A stretch of DNA of 64,000 bases from Clostridia bacterium (lineage in GTDB: Bacteria > Bacillota > Clostridia > Christensenellales > CAG-138): the NCBI GenBank assembly GCA_017428025.1, contig JAFRRO010000065.1, positions 2,621-66,620 on the forward strand, given 5' to 3'. Positions 33,533-60,524 of the stretch are shown piece after piece. Every line of letters starts with the position of its first letter. Positions within the stretch are counted from its first letter, which is position 1. The position numbers and the translations under genes were made by a program. The notes under the pieces are model-generated. The model had not been told where the DNA came from. It did not search any database and was given only the letters and a program-made list of their open reading frames with translations.

Positions 33533-34579
33533 TCAGAGGTACTTGACCTGCAGCGAACCGAAGTTGACGTCCGCGCGGATGATGATGTTCTGCGTCGCGT
33601 CCGGATCGGGATCGCCGGTGCAGGTGAACGCCGCAAACGAGGTGTCGGAAGACTTCACCATGCGGACATGGCGCGGCAGCAGGATCGTGATGTTGCCGAA
33701 GTTCTGGTCGATCTTCAAAAGGCAGTCCGGCACAAACGTGATGACGTTGCGAAGGTCGATCGTATAGTCGCCGAAGTTCGAGTCGATGCTGCCGCCCGCG
33801 AGCACCTCGCGGTCATAGGTGATGTAACTGTTCCCGAAGCTCATGTCGGCTTCCAGATAGTTGTTGTCGTCCGAGTAGTCGAGCGTCGGCTTGCGGTCCG
33901 AGTTGTTTTTCGCGGCGTACTTCTGCTTTCTGCGGAAAACATGCGTCTTGCCGAGAATGACCATCACGAGCGCGATGATCGCGCCGATCAGCAGGATTAC
34001 ATACCAGCGGACTTCGGGCAGCGTCGTGTTGCCGTAAGTCAAAAGGATGCGACGGACGAATTCATAGCCGCCGAAGCCCATCATGACGGAGCCGAACGTG
34101 ATGCTGCTTCTGATCGAGATCAGACCGAGCGTGAAGATCAGCAGCGGCCATACGACGTCCCAGCCCTTCATCGGCGGCTCCAGCTTTTCATAGGGGAACA
34201 TGCCCGCTACGCTGTGCAGCAGGAAGAACAGGCATACAAGGATCGCGCCGATGCAGAACGCGATCGTCTGCCAGTTGCCGCTGTGCCTGTTCCATTCGAA
34301 TTTGAAGCTCTTCTTCGGATCGTCCTTCGGCACTTCATCCTTATCTAAAATGATAACGTGCGGTTCGACCGGCTTGACGCCCAAGAGCTCGTCCACCGAG
34401 ACGTCGAACAGATCGGCCAAAAGCGGCAGCAGCGTGATGTCCGGACAGCTGATGTCGTTTTCCCATTTGCTGACCGCCTGCGCGGAGACGCCGACCTTTT
34501 CGGCAAGCTGTTCCTGCGTGAGACCTTTTTCTTTTCTGAGTGCGGCAATGCGCTTGCCGAGCGTTTCTTTTTGTTCCAT
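33533..34579 (-). CDS. membrane-anchored XRE-family HTH regulator with LiaF-like C-terminal domain
   Basis: Start at ATG 34579 (MEQKETLGKRIAALRKEKGLTQEQLAEKVGVSAQAVSKWEN) after GGGAGGA. About 4 TM segments follow. The beta-rich C-terminus contains NFGNITILLP...ADVNFGSLQV. Confidence 0.75.
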   Translation of the reverse strand: MEQKETLGKRIAALRKEKGLTQEQLAEKVGVSAQAVSKWENDISCPDITLLPLLADLFDVSVDELLGVKPVEPHVIILDKDEVPKDDPKKSFKFEWNRHSGNWQTIAFCIGAILVCLFFLLHSVAGMFPYEKLEPPMKGWDVVWPLLIFTLGLISIRSSITFGSVMMGFGGYEFVRRILLTYGNTTLPEVRWYVILLIGAIIALVMVILGKTHVFRRKQKYAAKNNSDRKPTLDYSDDNNYLEADMSFGNSYITYDREVLAGGSIDSNFGDYTIDLRNVITFVPDCLLKIDQNFGNITILLPRHVRMVKSSDTSFAAFTCTGDPDPDATQNIIIRADVNFGSLQVKYL

Positions 34580-34646
34580 GGTTGTTTCCTCCCTGTTTTT
34601 GTCGGCTACAGCATAACAAACCCGTCGAAAAAGAACCATCGACCGT

Positions 34647-54621: not shown

Positions 54622-55443
54622 ATGAGCGAATGTACCCATGACTGCAGCACCTGCACGGAAAACTGCTCGGAACGTCAGGAAACCGACTTCCGTGCAAAGC
54701 CCCATCCCCTCTCGTCCGTCAAAAAGGTGATCGCCGTACTGTCCGGCAAGGGCGGCGTCGGCAAGTCCCTCGTCACCTCCCTTCTTGCGGTCAACGCGAT
54801 GCGCAGCGGCGATCACGCCGCGATCCTCGATGCGGACATCACCGGTCCGTCGATCCCGAACGCATTCGGCGTGCATGAGAAGGCGACCGGAAACGATCTC
54901 GGCATCTTCCCCTCCCGCTCGAAGCTCGGCATTGATCTGATGTCGATCAACCTGCTTCTTGAGCACGAGACCGATCCCGTCATCTGGCGCGGACCGATCG
55001 TTGCCGGAACCGTCAAGCAGTTCTGGAGCGACGTCATCTGGAAGGACGTCGATATCATGTTCATCGACATGCCTCCGGGAACCGGCGACGTGCCGCTGAC
55101 CGTATTCCAGTCCCTGCCGATCGACGGCGTCGTCGTCGTCACCTCGCCGCAGGAGCTTGTCGGCATGGTCGTGCAGAAGGCGGTCAACATGGCGAACATG
55201 ATGCACATTCCGGTGCTCGGCGTCGTCGAGAACTACAGCTATTTCGAGTGCCCCGACTGCGGCAGGCGCCACAACCTGTTCGGCGACAGCCACATCGAAA
55301 AGGTCGCCGCGGAGAACGGCATCGAAACCGTCTGCCGCATTCCGGTCAACCCGAAGCTTGCGGCGGCGTGCGATGCGGGTCTCATTGAGCTCTACGAGGG
55401 CGACTGGCTGGACGAACTGACGAAGAAGATCGAAGCGCTATGA
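54622..55443 (+). CDS. Mrp/NBP35/ApbC-family Fe-S cluster carrier ATPase
   Basis: Cys-rich N-terminus CTHDCSTCTENC, deviant Walker A LSGKGGVGKS, CPDCG motif. Confidence 0.9.
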   Translation: MSECTHDCSTCTENCSERQETDFRAKPHPLSSVKKVIAVLSGKGGVGKSLVTSLLAVNAMRSGDHAAILDADITGPSIPNAFGVHEKATGNDLGIFPSRSKLGIDLMSINLLLEHETDPVIWRGPIVAGTVKQFWSDVIWKDVDIMFIDMPPGTGDVPLTVFQSLPIDGVVVVTSPQELVGMVVQKAVNMANMMHIPVLGVVENYSYFECPDCGRRHNLFGDSHIEKVAAENGIETVCRIPVNPKLAAACDAGLIELYEGDWLDELTKKIEAL

Positions 55444-55889
55444 CACACGAAGAAAAAGCATTGCAGTATTTCAAGGACGGCGCAAACTGCGCGCAGGCGG
55501 TCGTTCTGGCGTTCCATGAGGAACTCGGCATCGACGAAGCTGCGGCAGCGCGGCTCGGCTCGTCGTTCGGCGGCGGCATTGGACGTCTGCGCGAAGTGTG
55601 CGGCGCGGTGTCCGGCATGATGATGGTCTACGGGATGCTCCGCGGATACGACGATCTCAGGGATCCGGCGGCGAAGAAAGCGCACTATCAGAACGTGCAG
55701 GCGCTGGCGGCGAAGTTCCGCGAGGAAAACGGCTCGATCGTCTGCCGCGAGCTTCTGGATCTTCGCAAAAACGAGAACAGCGATCCCACCCCCACCCCGC
55801 GCGACGCGAACTTTTACCATTCGCGCTCCTGCGCAGGCTTTGTGCAGTGCGCCGCACGGCTTCTGGACGAAGCGCTGAAAACGGAATAA
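55440..55889 (+). CDS. C_GCAxxG_C_C-family protein
   Basis: 149 aa: DGANCAQAVVLAF, EVCGAVSGMMMV, CRELL, CAGFVQC. Confidence 0.8.
   Translation: MTHEEKALQYFKDGANCAQAVVLAFHEELGIDEAAAARLGSSFGGGIGRLREVCGAVSGMMMVYGMLRGYDDLRDPAAKKAHYQNVQALAAKFREENGSIVCRELLDLRKNENSDPTPTPRDANFYHSRSCAGFVQCAARLLDEALKTE
55824..55879 (+). repeat. 56-bp direct repeat, left copy (3' end of the C_GCAxxG_C_C gene)
   Basis: CGCTCCTGCGCAGGCTTTGTGCAGTGCGCCGCACGGCTTCTGGACGAAGCGCTGAA matches 56869-56924 at 54 of 56 positions. Confidence 0.95.
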
Positions 55890-55896
55890 GCCGAAA

Positions 55897-55925
55897 GAAA
55901 ACGGACGCGGTCCGTTTTCTTTTTA
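55897..55925 (+). terminator. rho-independent terminator
   Basis: AAAACGGAC-gcg-GTCCGTTTT followed by CTTTTT. Confidence 0.75.
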
Positions 55926-56003
55926 CGATGGTATGTAAACTATACTTGACATATTGTCCTGTTTATGATACATTTACGACAAGCAGATTCGGAGGTGAAT
56001 GCT

Positions 56004-56591
56004 ATGGGCTCATGCATCTATTCAGACTTTTTCAACAGTCTCAGCGGTCTTGATATCATTTTTTATTTGCTCTATATGATCCTCATTATCCATGGGATGA
56101 TCGAAAAAAAGAAGAACAAAATAGTTGATTACGATGAGCGTCAGCAACAGAACCGTTTGAAAGCATTCCGGTTCGGATACATCTTCACGATTGTCGGCTG
56201 TTTCATTTCCGTAGGTCTCTATCCTGTGTGGATCCAGCTTAAGTTCTATATCCCTTTTTTGTTCTTTCTGCCCGTTGCAGTCGGTGATTGCGGTCTTACC
56301 CTTTTTTCCGTTATAACCGACTCATATCTCCCTCTTTGGGACAACTATAAATCCAGGTTTTACTTTCTGCTTTATTGTTTGATTATGATGGTAATTCATC
56401 TCTTGTTTTTCATCCTCCGTTTTCTGCGTTTAAGAGAAGCAGATGCTGCAGCCGAACTGAACATTATGAGCACAAATGCTTGCCTTATATTCTTGTTGTT
56501 CATTGTTTTTCTGATTGAGCTGATTGCCGTAATAATCAAGGTTCTCTGTGAGCGAAAAAGGAACAAAGAAGAAACAGCCGGCGTAGAATAG
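56004..56591 (+). CDS. polytopic membrane protein of unknown function
   Basis: ATG 56004 (MGSCIYSDFF) after GGAGGTG. 4-5 hydrophobic segments and AT-rich codon usage. Confidence 0.65.
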   Translation: MGSCIYSDFFNSLSGLDIIFYLLYMILIIHGMIEKKKNKIVDYDERQQQNRLKAFRFGYIFTIVGCFISVGLYPVWIQLKFYIPFLFFLPVAVGDCGLTLFSVITDSYLPLWDNYKSRFYFLLYCLIMMVIHLLFFILRFLRLREADAAAELNIMSTNACLIFLLFIVFLIELIAVIIKVLCERKRNKEETAGVE

Positions 56592-56634
56592 CGTCCACTG
56601 ATTTACATAAAAGCTATCAAAGCTGTATTGGAAT

Positions 56635-56868
56635 ATGAAAAATCTGAAACTGAAAGCCGCACGAACGCTCCACGAATTATCGCAGCAACAGCTTGCTGCA
56701 CGTGTCGGCGTCTCAAGACAAACAATCAACGCCATCGAAAAGGGTGATTATAATCCGACAATCAGGCTTTGCATCGCAATTTGCAAAGTTCTGCACAGCT
56801 CGCTCGACGAGCTCTTTTGGAATGATGACGATCCCCCGCCCTCAGCTTTCTCACCAGATTCGGATTAA
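56635..56868 (+). CDS. small XRE-family HTH transcriptional regulator
   Basis: 77 aa: LKAARTLHELSQQQLAARVGVSRQTINAIEKGDYNPTIRLCIAICKVL. This is the widespread ~70-aa HTH_3 type usually paired with a small membrane protein. Confidence 0.85.
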   Translation: MKNLKLKAARTLHELSQQQLAARVGVSRQTINAIEKGDYNPTIRLCIAICKVLHSSLDELFWNDDDPPPSAFSPDSD

Positions 56869-56924
56869 CGCTCCTGCGCAGGCTTTGTGCAGTGCGCCGC
56901 AAGGCTGCTGGACGAAGCGCTGAA
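56869..56924 (+). repeat. 56-bp direct repeat, right copy
   Basis: It starts immediately after the XRE stop codon. In the original frame it would read SCAGFVQCAARLLDEALNS-stop. Confidence 0.95.
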
Positions 56925-57028
56925 CAGCTGAACCATTTGCTGCGGCATAGTCTTTCTGCAGTCATTCGGAACGATAACAGCGATCGAAAATGAGCTTTTC
57001 TCTCGACAGATGAGAAACCACAAAATGT

Positions 57029-57116
57029 GTCATTCTGAGCCGAAGGCGAAGAATCTCTGAACATAAAAGTGTTTCACCGTTCAGAGATCCTTCGTCGCTT
57101 CGCTCCTCAGGATGAC
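57029..57116. repeat. REP/MITE-like imperfect palindrome, copy 2
   Basis: Arms are GTCATTCTGAGCCGAAGGCGAAGAATCTCTGAAC and GTTCAGAGATCCTTCGTCGCTTCGCTCCTCAGGATGAC, separated by a 16-nt loop. Confidence 0.8.
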
Positions 57117-57276: not shown

Positions 57277-57305
57277 GCCCTCCTTTCGGGAGGGCTTTTC
57301 CGTTC
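57277..57305 (+). terminator. orphan rho-independent terminator, preceded by a second hairpin at 57249-57274
   Basis: GCCCTCC-tttc-GGAGGGC followed by TTTTCCGTTCTTT. Upstream hairpin is AGCGTGTCA-aaagtttc-TGACACGCT. No ORF ends nearby. Confidence 0.55.
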
Positions 57306-57319
57306 TTTCATATTATATG

Positions 57320-57436
57320 TAACGAATACTTATTATTAACGGATACTATTATAGTAACGATACCTTAATACCGTATCCGTTATAACGTTACCTGTTATCC
57401 GTTACCGAAAAAGAAACAATTACCGTATCCGTTATA
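57320..57436. promoter_or_regulatory. array of six to seven GTATCCGTTA/TAACGGATAC motifs in an AT-rich spacer
   Basis: TAACGAATAC at 57320, TAACGGATAC at 57337, TAACGATACC at 57355 (one base shorter). The opposite orientation has GTATCCGTTA at 57373, TTATCCGTTA at 57395 and GTATCCGTTA at 57425. The 16-mer TACCGTATCCGTTATA is repeated at 57369 and 57421. Confidence 0.7.
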
Positions 57437-57580
57437 CCGAACCGTTCTTTTACATCTTTTTTCTACCGGAAAACGCAGATTTTACAACTTGGCAACAACT
57501 CTGTTACAACTTAGACGCGTTTTGGACGAATCTCGATGCTACGATACCTCTGAAAAAACAGAATTCAGGAGGAGATTCCG

Positions 57581-59077
57581 ATGAAACGCATGTTTTGCAT
57601 GATCCTGCTTGTCCTGCTGCTCGCCTGCGTCCCAACGCCGGAGGAGGATGTTGTCCCGCAGAAGGATACGGTCGCGATGCTTGAAATGGCGAAGAGCACG
57701 CCGCTGCCGGACGAATCCACCGTCGGCGTCGATCAGACGTCCGGCGAAGGACAGCCGGTTCCCCTGCCGTTGATCCGCGAGCGGTACGCGATCCCCGAGA
57801 CGTACCGGACCTCCGCCGAGCTTGCAGAGGGACACTTTATTCTGAACGTCGACGCCGAGGTGCTGGTGCCGGACGTTTCCGCGATCCCGATTGTACGCAT
57901 CGAGCGGGACAATTTCGATCCGGCATTCATTCGCGCCCTGTTTCAAAACCTCTGCGGCGATGCGGAGCTCTATTATCTGAACCGTACCTACACAAAAACG
58001 CAGATTGCCGACCGCATCAAATACCTTTCGGAGAAGATTTCGGACGAGCAGGCGTATATCAAAGAATACGGCGAAGAACACCTTGCTTACACCAAGTCCG
58101 AGATTGAACAGTTGAAAGCAAACTATGCCGACGCGCCGGATTCCGTCGAGGACGTCCGCTGTTACGGCGAGCTATGCCCGATGGCGGACAACTATCTCAC
58201 AAGCGACGGGAACAAACCGGTCTCCCGTGAAACCACCGTTATGGGCATCACGGCATATACGAAGACGATGGACCGGCATTTTATTGTGAAGAACGCCGAG
58301 CCGGATTCCCCTGCGGGCAAACGCACCTTTGGCACGTATCTCATGTACGGCACAAACAAGTCGTATCCGGATCGTGTGTTTTATTTCCGCGTACCGAAGG
58401 GTTTTCGGAACGACGCTTATGCGCCGGAGAAGGCGGAAGCCGACGTTAACGCGATCCTAATGCAAAACGGTCTTGAGGATTTTGCGGTTTCGATGATCCT
58501 GTATGCGCCGCAGCAGGTCGAGGAACATCCGGACGATCCGGTCTACTGGGTGCATTGTGTGCGCACCGTCCGTTCCGTCAAAACGGCGTTCAACACGGAT
58601 ATGACTGCGGATCCGGAGGACATGTTCGGTCCGGCATGGGGATATGAAAACATGTCGTTTTGGATGACGCGCGACGGCATTGTGAATTTCGAATGGCATG
58701 CACCGGTCAAGGTCTGCGATACGGTCGTGGAGAACGCAACGCTGCTGCCGTTTGAAAAGATTATGGAGCGATATCTTTGGATCGTCAACACGAAGTACGC
58801 CGCCAACATGAATCTCAAAAATCCCGATCTCAAGTACGGCGCAACGACCAAAAACCGGTACGACATCGACCGCATCGAGCTGACGCTGCAGCGCATTCAA
58901 GAGCCGAACGAATGGGACAGCGCGCTGCTCGTGCCGGTGTGGAACTTCTACGGCGTCAACACACGCACCGAGGTCGAGGACTACAAGGAATATGAGATTG
59001 TCGAATATTGCTGCAATTCCATGATCTCGATCAACGCCATCGACGGCAGCATCATCGATCCCTGGAAAGGCTACTGA
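57581..59077 (+). CDS. lipoprotein of unknown function, paralog 1
   Basis: MKRMFCMILLVLLLACVPTPEED lipobox. It shares N-terminal and C-terminal blocks with the next gene, including a PepSY-like end ISINAIDGSIIDP. Confidence 0.75.
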   Translation: MKRMFCMILLVLLLACVPTPEEDVVPQKDTVAMLEMAKSTPLPDESTVGVDQTSGEGQPVPLPLIRERYAIPETYRTSAELAEGHFILNVDAEVLVPDVSAIPIVRIERDNFDPAFIRALFQNLCGDAELYYLNRTYTKTQIADRIKYLSEKISDEQAYIKEYGEEHLAYTKSEIEQLKANYADAPDSVEDVRCYGELCPMADNYLTSDGNKPVSRETTVMGITAYTKTMDRHFIVKNAEPDSPAGKRTFGTYLMYGTNKSYPDRVFYFRVPKGFRNDAYAPEKAEADVNAILMQNGLEDFAVSMILYAPQQVEEHPDDPVYWVHCVRTVRSVKTAFNTDMTADPEDMFGPAWGYENMSFWMTRDGIVNFEWHAPVKVCDTVVENATLLPFEKIMERYLWIVNTKYAANMNLKNPDLKYGATTKNRYDIDRIELTLQRIQEPNEWDSALLVPVWNFYGVNTRTEVEDYKEYEIVEYCCNSMISINAIDGSIIDPWKGY

Positions 59078-59119
59078 CGCGGCGCCGCTTCCTTGTAAAT
59101 TCTTTTCGCAACAATTTGA

Positions 59120-59163
59120 CCTCCCGTGTCGTCTAATAGACAGATGACGAAGGGAGGTTTTTT
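59120..59163 (+). terminator. hairpin/terminator whose 3' arm contains the RBS of the next gene
   Basis: CCTCCC..TCGTC...GACGA.GGGAGG followed by TTTTTT. GGGAGG is also the only Shine-Dalgarno sequence for ATG 59166. Confidence 0.55.
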
Positions 59164-59165
59164 GT

Positions 59166-60524
59166 ATGAAACGTTTGATTGCTTTGCTGCTCCTCTGTCT
59201 GTTCGTCGCCTGTGTGCCGACGCCGGACGGGGATTTTGTCGTGAACAAGGCGGACGGTACGCTGGAGGAGATCATCCATGCGCCGTCCGAATCCGCCGAT
59301 CCGCAGACCTGGACCATCGAGCCGTCCGCCTCGCCCGCAAACGAACCGCTGCCGACGGACCTCCCGATGCAGACGATCGCGTGGACGGACAGCTTTTCGG
59401 TCGCGGCGGCAATGGACCGGCTGGATGTGACCGTCGACGCGTCCGTGCAGGTCCCCGAAAGCGAAACCGCGCCGGTGTACCGCTTTACCTTTGCCCCGCC
59501 CGATTCTGCGCGCGCGTCCGCGCTGGTGTCGCTGTTTTTCGGCGACAGCCGTGTATTCCTTGCGGACCGCACCAAGACGAAGTCGTTTTACAAGGCGGAG
59601 ATGGAGCGCATCGTTTCCGAGAAGGAGCGTGAAACCGACGAGCGTAACCGCGAGGAATGGGACCGTTTACTTCAGCAGGCGTCGCAGGCGTACGCCGACG
59701 CGCCGGAGGACGTCTCCCCCGTTTCGTGGGACGGCGGCTTTGAGGGCGCATTCGATCTCATGGCGGAGAACGGCGACGGCACCTATCGCTATCTTTCGGC
59801 AAACGAGCGCAGCATCCTGTACACCGACGCGGTCGAGACGCCGAACACCGTGCCCGGACGCAATCCGAAGCTCGCCCCCGAAACGCAGGAGGAGCGCGAC
59901 GCCTGCGATCTTGCGGTGCGCGTGCTCGAAGCGCTGCACATCGACGCGGAGCTTGCCGCGCTGTATCCGACGGACGCCATGGTTCGCGCGTTCGGCACCC
60001 GCGCGGTCGACGGGTATTATCTGTATTTCTACCCGAAATACGGCGGTCTGCCCGCCACGCTCGACGCAAGCTCGCACACCTTTCACGGCTTCGACAACGC
60101 GAAGGAGGCGGCGGGCGGCAGCGACAGCGACGACTATTCGGCGCCCTTTGAACCGGAAACGATCGAGTTTCTGATCTCGAACGGCGCGATCGTGCGCTTC
60201 CGGTACATGCGTCCGTCGCGCATTCTGCGCACGGAGAACGAGGCGGCGCAGCTGCTGCCGTTTTCCCGGATACAGGAGCTGTTTGGAAGCTATATCGGCA
60301 AGACCACCTTTGTCCAGAAGGGCGAGCCGCTGACGCTGCATGTGCACACCGTGCGGCTCACGATGCAGCGCTGTCCGATCGAGAACAACGCGGCGGAATT
60401 CTATCTTCTGCCCGCGTGGGAGTTCCTCGCGTCGGTGGATTCCGGAAACGCGTCGGCGGACGCAAGTCTGAAAAACGTCGTTGTGCTGCGCATCAACGCG
60501 CTTGACGGCAGCATCATGCGCTGA
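59166..60524 (+). CDS. lipoprotein of unknown function, paralog 2
   Basis: MKRLIALLLLCLFVACVPTPDGD lipobox. C-terminal block VVLRINALDGSIMR. Confidence 0.75.
   Translation: MKRLIALLLLCLFVACVPTPDGDFVVNKADGTLEEIIHAPSESADPQTWTIEPSASPANEPLPTDLPMQTIAWTDSFSVAAAMDRLDVTVDASVQVPESETAPVYRFTFAPPDSARASALVSLFFGDSRVFLADRTKTKSFYKAEMERIVSEKERETDERNREEWDRLLQQASQAYADAPEDVSPVSWDGGFEGAFDLMAENGDGTYRYLSANERSILYTDAVETPNTVPGRNPKLAPETQEERDACDLAVRVLEALHIDAELAALYPTDAMVRAFGTRAVDGYYLYFYPKYGGLPATLDASSHTFHGFDNAKEAAGGSDSDDYSAPFEPETIEFLISNGAIVRFRYMRPSRILRTENEAAQLLPFSRIQELFGSYIGKTTFVQKGEPLTLHVHTVRLTMQRCPIENNAAEFYLLPAWEFLASVDSGNASADASLKNVVVLRINALDGSIMR

Follow-up and report, generated by a model that had tools for sequence, protein, structure and literature searches.

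A 1045-bp membrane protein and regulator operon segregating as a presence/absence allele in a rumen Clostridia species, with flanking direct repeats that may be a by-product of homology-anchored recombination

We analyzed a 64-kb stretch of contig JAFRRO010000065.1 from a Clostridia bacterium (hereafter, the window), in which a two-gene unit encoding a polytopic membrane protein and a small XRE-family helix-turn-helix (HTH) regulator lies between two 56-bp direct repeats at the 3' end of a C_GCAxxG_C_C gene. We give an even chance to the reading that this 1045-bp unit, referred to below as the cassette, is a strain-variable accessory operon which resides in a hypervariable slot and entered it by homology-anchored recombination, displacing the old end of the gene. 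In this reading the unit is neither autonomous nor driven by an integrase. The repeats are explained equally well, and in our view better, by one such recombination event than by the attL and attR sites of a site-specific element.

All features of the locus are on the forward strand. The C_GCAxxG_C_C gene (55440 to 55889; 149 aa; Pfam PF09719, E = 4e-34) contains repeat copy 1 at 55824 to 55879, which is the functional, left copy and forms the final 56 nt common to both allele forms of the gene; copy 2 lies at 56869 to 56924. The original prediction had described 56-bp direct repeats matching at 54 of 56 positions, 1045 bp apart, with the second copy in frame to a stop, and recomputation returned exactly this: 54 of the 56 positions are identical, the start-to-start distance is 1045 bp, and copy 2 translates as RSCAGFVQCAARLLDEALNS and then a stop. 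The match stretches to 61 nt at 93% identity, and a 33-mer common to both copies has exactly 2 occurrences in the window, compared to an expectation of 0 from 100 shuffles. The predicted contents of the interval, consisting of a terminator, the membrane protein, and an XRE regulator of approximately 77 aa behind the C_GCAxxG_C_C gene, were likewise recovered. This interval is the lowest-GC kilobase in the entire window, with a computed GC of 0.375 to 0.435 (200-nt windows) compared to approximately 0.60 to 0.64 upstream, demonstrating that the AT-rich islet reported from the letters alone is a real compositional shift.

Empty sites in relatives had been anticipated, and they were found: L016, L023, and L050 to L056 each carry a single 56-mer, and the occupied arrangement is thus not common to all relatives. 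The closest relatives of the C_GCAxxG protein occur in two forms, one of 149 aa ending in KTE and one of 148 aa ending in NS or NN, and within the 90% cluster of the window protein, sequences approximately 99% identical to it occur in both. Cassette-bearing alleles end in LLDEALKTE followed by the stop, and same-species alleles without the cassette encode 148 aa and end in LLDEALNS followed by the stop. Among 148-aa proteins of this species, both NS and NN endings occur. The contigs with the 148-aa NS form (L050 to L056, up to 165 kb) belong to the same species as the window, three of them (L054 to L056) being 98.7% identical to it upstream and approximately 98% downstream. When the window was aligned by BLAST to these same-species empty alleles, the sequence up to 55879 and the sequence from 56869 onward both mapped on one overlapping 56-mer, and on this basis the cassette is a precise 1045-bp presence/absence indel within the species. 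Copy 2 and the AAC AGC TGA that follows it (56869 to 56931, reading LNS and stop) are identical, downstream context included, to the gene end in the empty alleles L016, L023, and L050 to L056. Sequence identity of this kind indicates that copy 2 with its NS-stop is the ancestral C_GCAxxG end, displaced and now a non-coding relic.

The distribution of the two allele types was compared to that of their flanks. The exact HTH protein was found on contigs from ruminant gut metagenomes, and the 20 contigs read were all consistent with this single locus (10 places shown). Approximately 20 occupied contigs all carried the same 1045-bp form and none a larger version. The occupied alleles L006 and L007 and the empty alleles L050 and L054 to L056 are separated by one single nucleotide polymorphism (SNP) across 384 nt upstream, and over the 300 nt that come directly downstream no fixed differences separate occupied from empty alleles. 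The two allele types were interspersed in a distance matrix of the upstream sequence, and downstream they clustered only partly. All sister-species alleles (L014 to L022) lack the cassette, end in NN, and carry one 56-mer; they are 5 to 7% diverged over 55000 to 55823, and their gene ends differ at 5 to 7 of the 56 positions of the 56-mer. Diversity of the cassette across occupied alleles was 0 to 1.3%, similar to flank diversity. Because the alleles are interspersed, the sister species are empty, and the cassette is about as diverse as its flanks, these sequence comparisons fit a single insertion that has since been segregating in a recombining species.

Relatedness varies along the C_GCAxxG gene. 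Its first approximately 110 nt (55440 to 55550) are sharply unlike those of all relatives, and the remainder is 97 to 98% like L023. The genes of L016, L023, and L024 are mosaics with breakpoints inside the gene, a pattern that points to frequent recombination between lineages at this gene. We had considered the upstream divergence of L016 and L023 (90 to 92% identity) as a sign of an imported right flank. This idea was weakened and is not upheld, since the divergence concentrates in the first approximately 110 nt of the gene and same-species empty alleles with window-type upstream sequence exist. Several metagenome contigs (L003, L009 to L012, L024, and L025) end where the cassette starts on the left or shortly after this point, as might happen if a sample contained both occupied and empty strains or more than one upstream background.

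The sequence that enters at the left junction is homologous to the end of the same gene in another lineage. The incoming gene tail and intrinsic terminator span 55880 to 55922. The tail reads AAA ACG GAA TAA (KTE-stop), where the first two A's of the Lys codon are the last two bases of copy 1 and the incoming tail begins at the third base. The terminator hairpin (55893 to 55922) has a 13-bp stem, and the surrounding 116-nt stretch folds with z = -3.9. Tail and terminator are homologous to the sequence behind the orthologous C_GCAxxG gene in L026, and KTE-type C termini are common in more distant relatives of the protein; the KTE-stop tail now used by the gene arrived with the insert. A promoter scan placed a sigma-70-type module promoter at 55946 to 55974, with a -35 of TTGACA (55946 to 55951), a 17-nt spacer, and a TG-extended -10 of TACATT ending at 55974. 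The block GTAAAnTATACTTGACATnnTG (55935 to 55956) overlaps the -35 and is invariant across four unrelated module contexts (the window, L026, L034, and L040), making it a strong candidate operator on sequence grounds. Since the L026 orthologue is followed by a homologous terminator and promoter, the left junction is in register with homologous gene sequence, and this rules out a simple target duplication from a staggered cut.

The same module occupies the same slot in a related lineage. In L026 to L033, the syntenic slot holds the HTH protein P0126 in the order SIR2, ParA, C_GCAxxG (149 aa), terminator, promoter, 185-aa membrane protein, 67-aa HTH, lipoprotein, and aminotransferase, with no second copy of the gene end in this arrangement. 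Identities between the window and L026 are 88% for ParA, 80% for C_GCAxxG, 87% for the HTH, and 35% over 81 aa for the membrane protein. Because the regulator is as diverged as the core flanks, we consider it the orthologue of that in L026. The L026 module region is also low in GC (0.40 to 0.50 compared to 0.60), and the module is native to this slot in the L026 lineage, free of repeats. In L035 there is nothing between the C_GCAxxG gene and the aminotransferase gene, and the sister species carry one to three DUF6034 paralogues there. With no insert in one lineage, the module and a lipoprotein in another, and a variable number of paralogues in others, the slot between the core C_GCAxxG and aminotransferase genes is hypervariable. 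Another Oscillospiraceae species (L040 to L049, protein P0195) carries a more distant relative of the module, with a 179-aa membrane protein and a 65-aa HTH followed by an ABC transporter. This P0195 module had one fixed context in 10 of the 10 places shown, from 24 contigs read of 173 collection blocks listing P0195. Mobility is thus absent from at least one member of the family. A scan of relatives' genome contigs covered 3 relatives, none of which was informative on the repeat.

These observations can be joined in a single series of steps, in which the illegitimate junction, the donor, and the RecA-type spread and loss are what we infer. A DNA donor would have been a relative with the module natively right downstream of its own C_GCAxxG gene. 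On the left side, homologous recombination in the conserved last codons of the gene would have brought in the new KTE-stop tail, the terminator, the promoter, and the two genes, and the right end, just past the HTH stop, would have been attached out of register, at a point 56 nt ahead of the stop codon in the recipient. The original gene end (56 nt and NS-stop) would thereby have been pushed downstream as a relic, with the 56-bp direct repeat as a by-product. Such a combination of one homologous and one illegitimate junction would correspond to homology-facilitated illegitimate recombination (HFIR), or "C-terminal displacement." Ordinary homologous recombination in the flanks would then maintain and move the indel, and RecA-type recombination between the repeats could remove the cassette.

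For type VI secretion system (T6SS) clusters, HFIR-type displacement has been proposed to move an old effector gene's 3' end downstream together with the immunity gene (PMC5361080). As proposed for the Rhs, contact-dependent inhibition (CDI), and T6SS effector-immunity arrays, there is a homology anchor in a conserved upstream gene, from which a new 3' end and downstream genes enter: the insert starts with sequence homologous to the 3' end of the recipient gene and the region behind it. Also as in those arrays, the old 3' end is shifted downstream as an orphan that keeps a conserved stretch, giving a direct repeat (PMC5361080), and here copy 2 and its NS-stop are kept in this position. Unlike the arrays, the host gene encodes a small putative redox protein rather than a polymorphic toxin, the displaced tip is only 2 to 3 codons long, the cargo is a regulator pair rather than an immunity gene, and a single event rather than an array is involved, with the illegitimate junction and the donor reconstructed from sequence.

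The L026 arrangement also bears on a rival history, which we rate as quite improbable, in which the occupied, duplicated arrangement is ancestral to the NS/NN clade, having arisen by local duplication and deletion, and all empty alleles, those of the sister species included, are secondary precise deletions, with gene conversion keeping the repeats alike. A module that is orthologous to that of L026 and as diverged as its flanks would be expected under this history, direct repeats ease precise loss, and the repeat variants are common to both copies and, in the relic, all synonymous in the gene frame. Conversely, it demands at least two independent losses together with long homogenization of a 56-bp non-coding relic while the sister ends diverged at 5 to 7 of 56 positions; moreover, the diversity of the cassette among occupied alleles (0 to 1.3%) is no greater than within-species flank diversity, and no sister-species allele retains the cassette.

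We then looked for signs of site-specific mobility. The absence of a recombinase from the 1-kb unit, as originally stated, was confirmed among the cassette open reading frames (ORFs). A recombinase tied to the 56-mer had been suggested as something to look for elsewhere in the genome, and none was present in the cassette, within the syntenic ±6 kb, or among 20 further large window ORFs. A regular-expression search of all window ORFs of at least 150 aa for the tyrosine-recombinase motif pair, itself a weak test, gave no credible match. A search for the cassette in other att contexts or as a circular junction had likewise been suggested. A degenerate 33-mer of the repeat recovered this locus only from the JGI metagenomes and nothing from IMG/VR, searches of plasmid and phage collections with the cassette were negative, and no viral contig encoded a relative of the membrane protein. 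No other cargo at this 56-mer, and no 56-mer in another context, was found in any collection searched. An attP-type junction would read GGATTAA, the 56-mer, and AACGGAATAAGCC; the circular or tandem junction (HTH stop, then the 56-mer, then AAACGGAATAA) was not seen in the assembled sequences examined, and among the loci compared and the window, 15 of 15 HTH-preceded 56-mers continue into the NS tail and never into KTE.

Other recombination systems were examined in the same way. The cassette resembles integron gene cassettes in being a unit of approximately 1 kb without its own recombinase at a defined site, but there is no attC-like fold, integron integrase, or attI here, the unit has its own promoter and terminator, and the repeats copy a host gene end; an integron cassette was therefore rejected. 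The stretch with copy 2 was no more stably folded than its shuffled versions (z = +0.45 and +1.83), the terminator was the only structured part of the unit in the folding test, and an Rfam search matched no family. A dif/Xer origin, as an integrative mobile element exploiting Xer (IMEX) or a pdif module, was also rejected, no dif-like 28-mer being visible at the repeat by eye, without a formal scan; the TATGTAAACT close to the promoter, considered in this connection, belongs to the conserved operator/-35 block.

Variation inside the 56-mer was compared across alleles. There are five variable sites (C3T, A12C, C34A, T39G, and G42C), and the way in which the variants are combined differs among copy 1, copy 2, and the lone 56-mer of the empty alleles. 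In the strain group of the window, copy 1 has the empty-site sequence and copy 2 carries two variants (A and G), both of which are seen in copy 1 of L024. In L007 and L009 the two copies are identical, and in L006, L013, and L053 they are mosaics; these five alleles do not fit a fixed crossover point. Read in the frame of the gene, every repeat variant is synonymous, those of the non-coding relic included (L005 to L056 and the window), which suggests that the variants were imported from coding alleles by recombination or conversion. With only 4 to 5 variable sites, mosaic combinations, and metagenome assemblies that may mis-phase, the repeat SNPs are not decisive for placing the crossover. We also considered L024 as the donor lineage. 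Its upstream gene is only 83% identical to that of the window, and the start of its cassette is 100% identical over 126 nt. The L024 gene is a mosaic that turns window-like approximately 85 nt ahead of its end, which would suit import of the cassette by flank recombination, and L024 was rejected as the donor. On its sequence, L024 fits the signature of flank-mediated homologous transfer of the cassette.

Several points weigh against homology-anchored entry. No donor lineage was found: matches to the membrane protein comprise its own cluster and relatives of 28 to 35% identity, and L026, whose native arrangement comes closest, has 87% identity in the HTH and 35% in the membrane protein. The right junction, where TAA is followed directly by CGCTCC, coincides to the base with the HTH stop codon, a neat position for a junction of illegitimate origin. 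The reciprocal pattern in the window group would be the outcome of one Campbell-type crossover within the last 17 nt, and the shuffling of variants between copies across strains might stem from repeated rounds of excision and integration rather than from gene conversion, recombination in the flanks, or mis-phased metagenome assemblies. Finally, the recombinase search spans the 64-kb window and the synteny of the locus, and a recombinase gene may lie elsewhere in the genome.

In another reading, the cassette is a minimal, integrase-less unit in which the 56-mers are attL and attR and a 1045-bp circle integrates and excises in trans at the C_GCAxxG 3' end. Cis-mobilizable elements (CIMEs), which are att-flanked islands that lost integrase and transfer genes, are a recognized class (PMC5704250). 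The cassette is similar to them in having direct repeats at a gene 3' end, a regenerated end, no recombinase of its own, and precise empty sites (PMC5704250), and the reciprocal SNPs of the window group (copy 1 attB-like, copy 2 variant), the perfect identity of the L024 cassette start despite its divergent upstream gene, and the interspersion of occupied and empty alleles could all be accommodated. We nevertheless regard this mobilization in trans, which the original prediction had offered as one of two origins, as unlikely. Direct repeats do bound the unit, the left one lies at the 3' end of an intact gene, and the empty site is single copy, yet no cognate recombinase or partner, no attP junction or other cargo, and no other locus or replicon was found in the searches described above. 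There is no known cognate integrative and conjugative element (ICE), integrative and mobilizable element (IME), or integrase, and no accretion partner or other occupant was found. In addition, at 1 kb the unit is far smaller than the CIMEs described so far, and its cargo is orthologous to a native chromosomal module that a relative carries in this slot with no repeats around it. The presumed attP arm is almost identical to the species' own fast-evolving gene end, from which the sister species are 5 to 7 of 56 positions off; this would be unexpected for an element from outside. The mosaics of L006, L013, and L053 clash with a fixed crossover point, and the window-like last approximately 85 nt of the L024 gene point to flank recombination. 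Thus, of the initial inference of an integrative element, the insertion or deletion, the empty sites, the regenerated gene end, and the GC shift stand, but an attL/attR site-specific element is not supported. We assign only a slim chance to a related idea, a self-contained micro-cassette with its own promoter, operator, terminator, and target-gene end that would cycle as a circle, with a host recombinase (Xer-like or an orphan integrase) or RecA alone acting at the 56-mer. If this were true, the cassette would be the smallest CIME-like element described and would hint that CylR1/CylR2-type modules spread in this way.

The other proposed origin was a larger island, of which the unit would be a remnant. 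Such an island, or a prophage, would have integrated by means of an integrase of its own and later lost all but the two genes through internal deletion. XRE repressors are often found beside att sites at the edges of prophages and ICEs, and both the att-like repeats without a recombinase and the low GC would suit such a remnant. However, the unit contains neither a scar nor any sequence to spare, being taken up entirely by the terminator, the promoter, and the two genes, with copy 2 starting directly behind the HTH stop. None of the approximately 20 occupied contigs carries a larger form, and the HTH, promoter, and terminator are orthologous to the L026 chromosomal module. There were no phage, plasmid, or viral matches, and a PADLOC defense-system search returned only generic HTH profile matches to the XRE protein and none to the membrane protein. 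Taken together, these results make an island remnant very improbable.

The two cassette genes encode proteins of very different conservation. The membrane protein (56004 to 56591) is 195 aa long from the ATG at 56004, or 208 aa from an alternative start at 55965, and has approximately 5 hydrophobic segments, with a conserved D/Y-DERQ-x3-R-x-KA-F/Y motif behind the first transmembrane segment. It matched no Pfam or NCBIfam family. Its relatives outside its own cluster are weak (best 28% identity, E = 7e-14), and some of them score to DUF6442, DUF6773, or DUF2178 below threshold; the 195-aa protein itself did not reach the gathering threshold for these families. Upstream membrane proteins across the module family are highly divergent and yet have a (Y/F)DERQ-x3-R-x-KA-(F/Y) motif in common. 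The HTH regulator (56635 to 56868; 77 aa; HTH_3, E = 5e-18; stop codon TAA) belongs to a very conserved family of 64- to 70-aa regulators with 75 to 86% identity across many Firmicutes. The combination of a membrane protein and a small HTH is a widespread module, as had been proposed.

Compared to its close homologues (64 to 73 aa), the regulator has a proline-rich insertion of approximately 10 aa (DDPPPSAFSP, 56824 to 56859) ahead of its DSD-stop. We asked whether its C-terminal tail, DDPPPSAFSPDSD, was decayed sequence that had once continued the duplicated gene fragment on its upstream side, and rejected this: the closest homologues, P0124 (86%) and P0126 (85%), end in VEDSD or VDDSD, and because they have the same DSD-stop, the HTH stop is native and the tail an internal insertion. 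The relic (56866 to 56931) is in frame with the HTH ORF right after its TAA, and read-through would add RSCAGFVQCAARLLDEALNS to the regulator; this in-frame position is probably a coincidence.

The best solved-structure match of the regulator is CylR2 (1utx; E = 4.5e-11; residues 6 to 62 on 6 to 63), and for this reason the cargo looks like a CylR1/CylR2-type pair of membrane sensor and repressor, as known from the Enterococcus faecalis cytolysin operon. As in that pair, the XRE HTH is of the 66-aa class and matches CylR2 over its full length, it is co-transcribed behind a small polytopic membrane protein, by its architecture a putative CylR1 counterpart, and a conserved palindromic block overlaps the promoter. 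CylR1 is approximately 94 aa long. Unlike the cytolysin system, there are no lantibiotic genes nearby, the HTH has an extra tail of approximately 10 aa, and the membrane protein has 195 aa and approximately 5 hydrophobic segments compared to the three predicted transmembrane domains of CylR1 (PMC3709268, which summarizes CylR1/CylR2 biology). By analogy, the small XRE repressor would bind the conserved candidate operator overlapping its own -35, giving autoregulation, and the co-transcribed membrane protein would relay an envelope or extracellular signal that relieves repression.

Some further features lie outside the cassette. An imperfect hairpin element (GTCATTCTGAGCCGAAGGCGAAGAATC ... GATCCTTCGTCGCTTCGCTCCTCAGGATGAC) at 57029 to 57113, with arms at 57047 to 57062 and 57079 to 57094, is single copy in the window. 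It is present in occupied and empty alleles alike and is missing from the 195-bp spacer of the sister species; it looks like an insertion similar to a repetitive extragenic palindromic (REP) sequence or a miniature inverted-repeat transposable element (MITE). Upstream of the DUF6034 gene, the region from 57300 to 57440 is very AT-rich (GC 0.34) and contains TACCGTATCCGTTA twice (57369 and 57421) and an inverted partial copy at 57337 to 57355; the TACCGTATCCGTTA copies are candidate regulator binding sites by their sequence. The DUF6034-type lipoprotein array that follows (57581 to 60524) is variable, with a 498-aa and a 452-aa gene in the window and an extra 486-aa DUF6034-type paralogue between the two in the same-species empty alleles L050 to L052 (L050, 7097 to 11803; compare L014, 5643 to 10447). 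A second combination of HTH and membrane-type domains in the window is found on the reverse strand at 33533 to 34639, where a 368-aa fusion protein starts with an XRE HTH_3 domain and carries a LiaF-like domain in its C-terminal part; its gene adjoins a lower-GC patch at 34.0 to 35.0 kb (GC 0.52).

The locus does not overturn current understanding: it is read here as an ordinary accessory-operon indel whose repeat mimics att sites. When direct repeats resemble att sites and regenerate the end of a gene, this alone is not evidence of an integrase-driven element, and pipelines that call islands from such repeats should be used with this caution in mind. For the biology of the organism, the locus provides a clean, population-resolved case of a small accessory operon that has become a presence/absence allele in a gut anaerobe of the rumen Clostridia. 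With its cargo, the CylR1/CylR2-type pairs, which are little understood, gain a probable member from the rumen Clostridia, one with a strongly conserved candidate operator that is directly testable.

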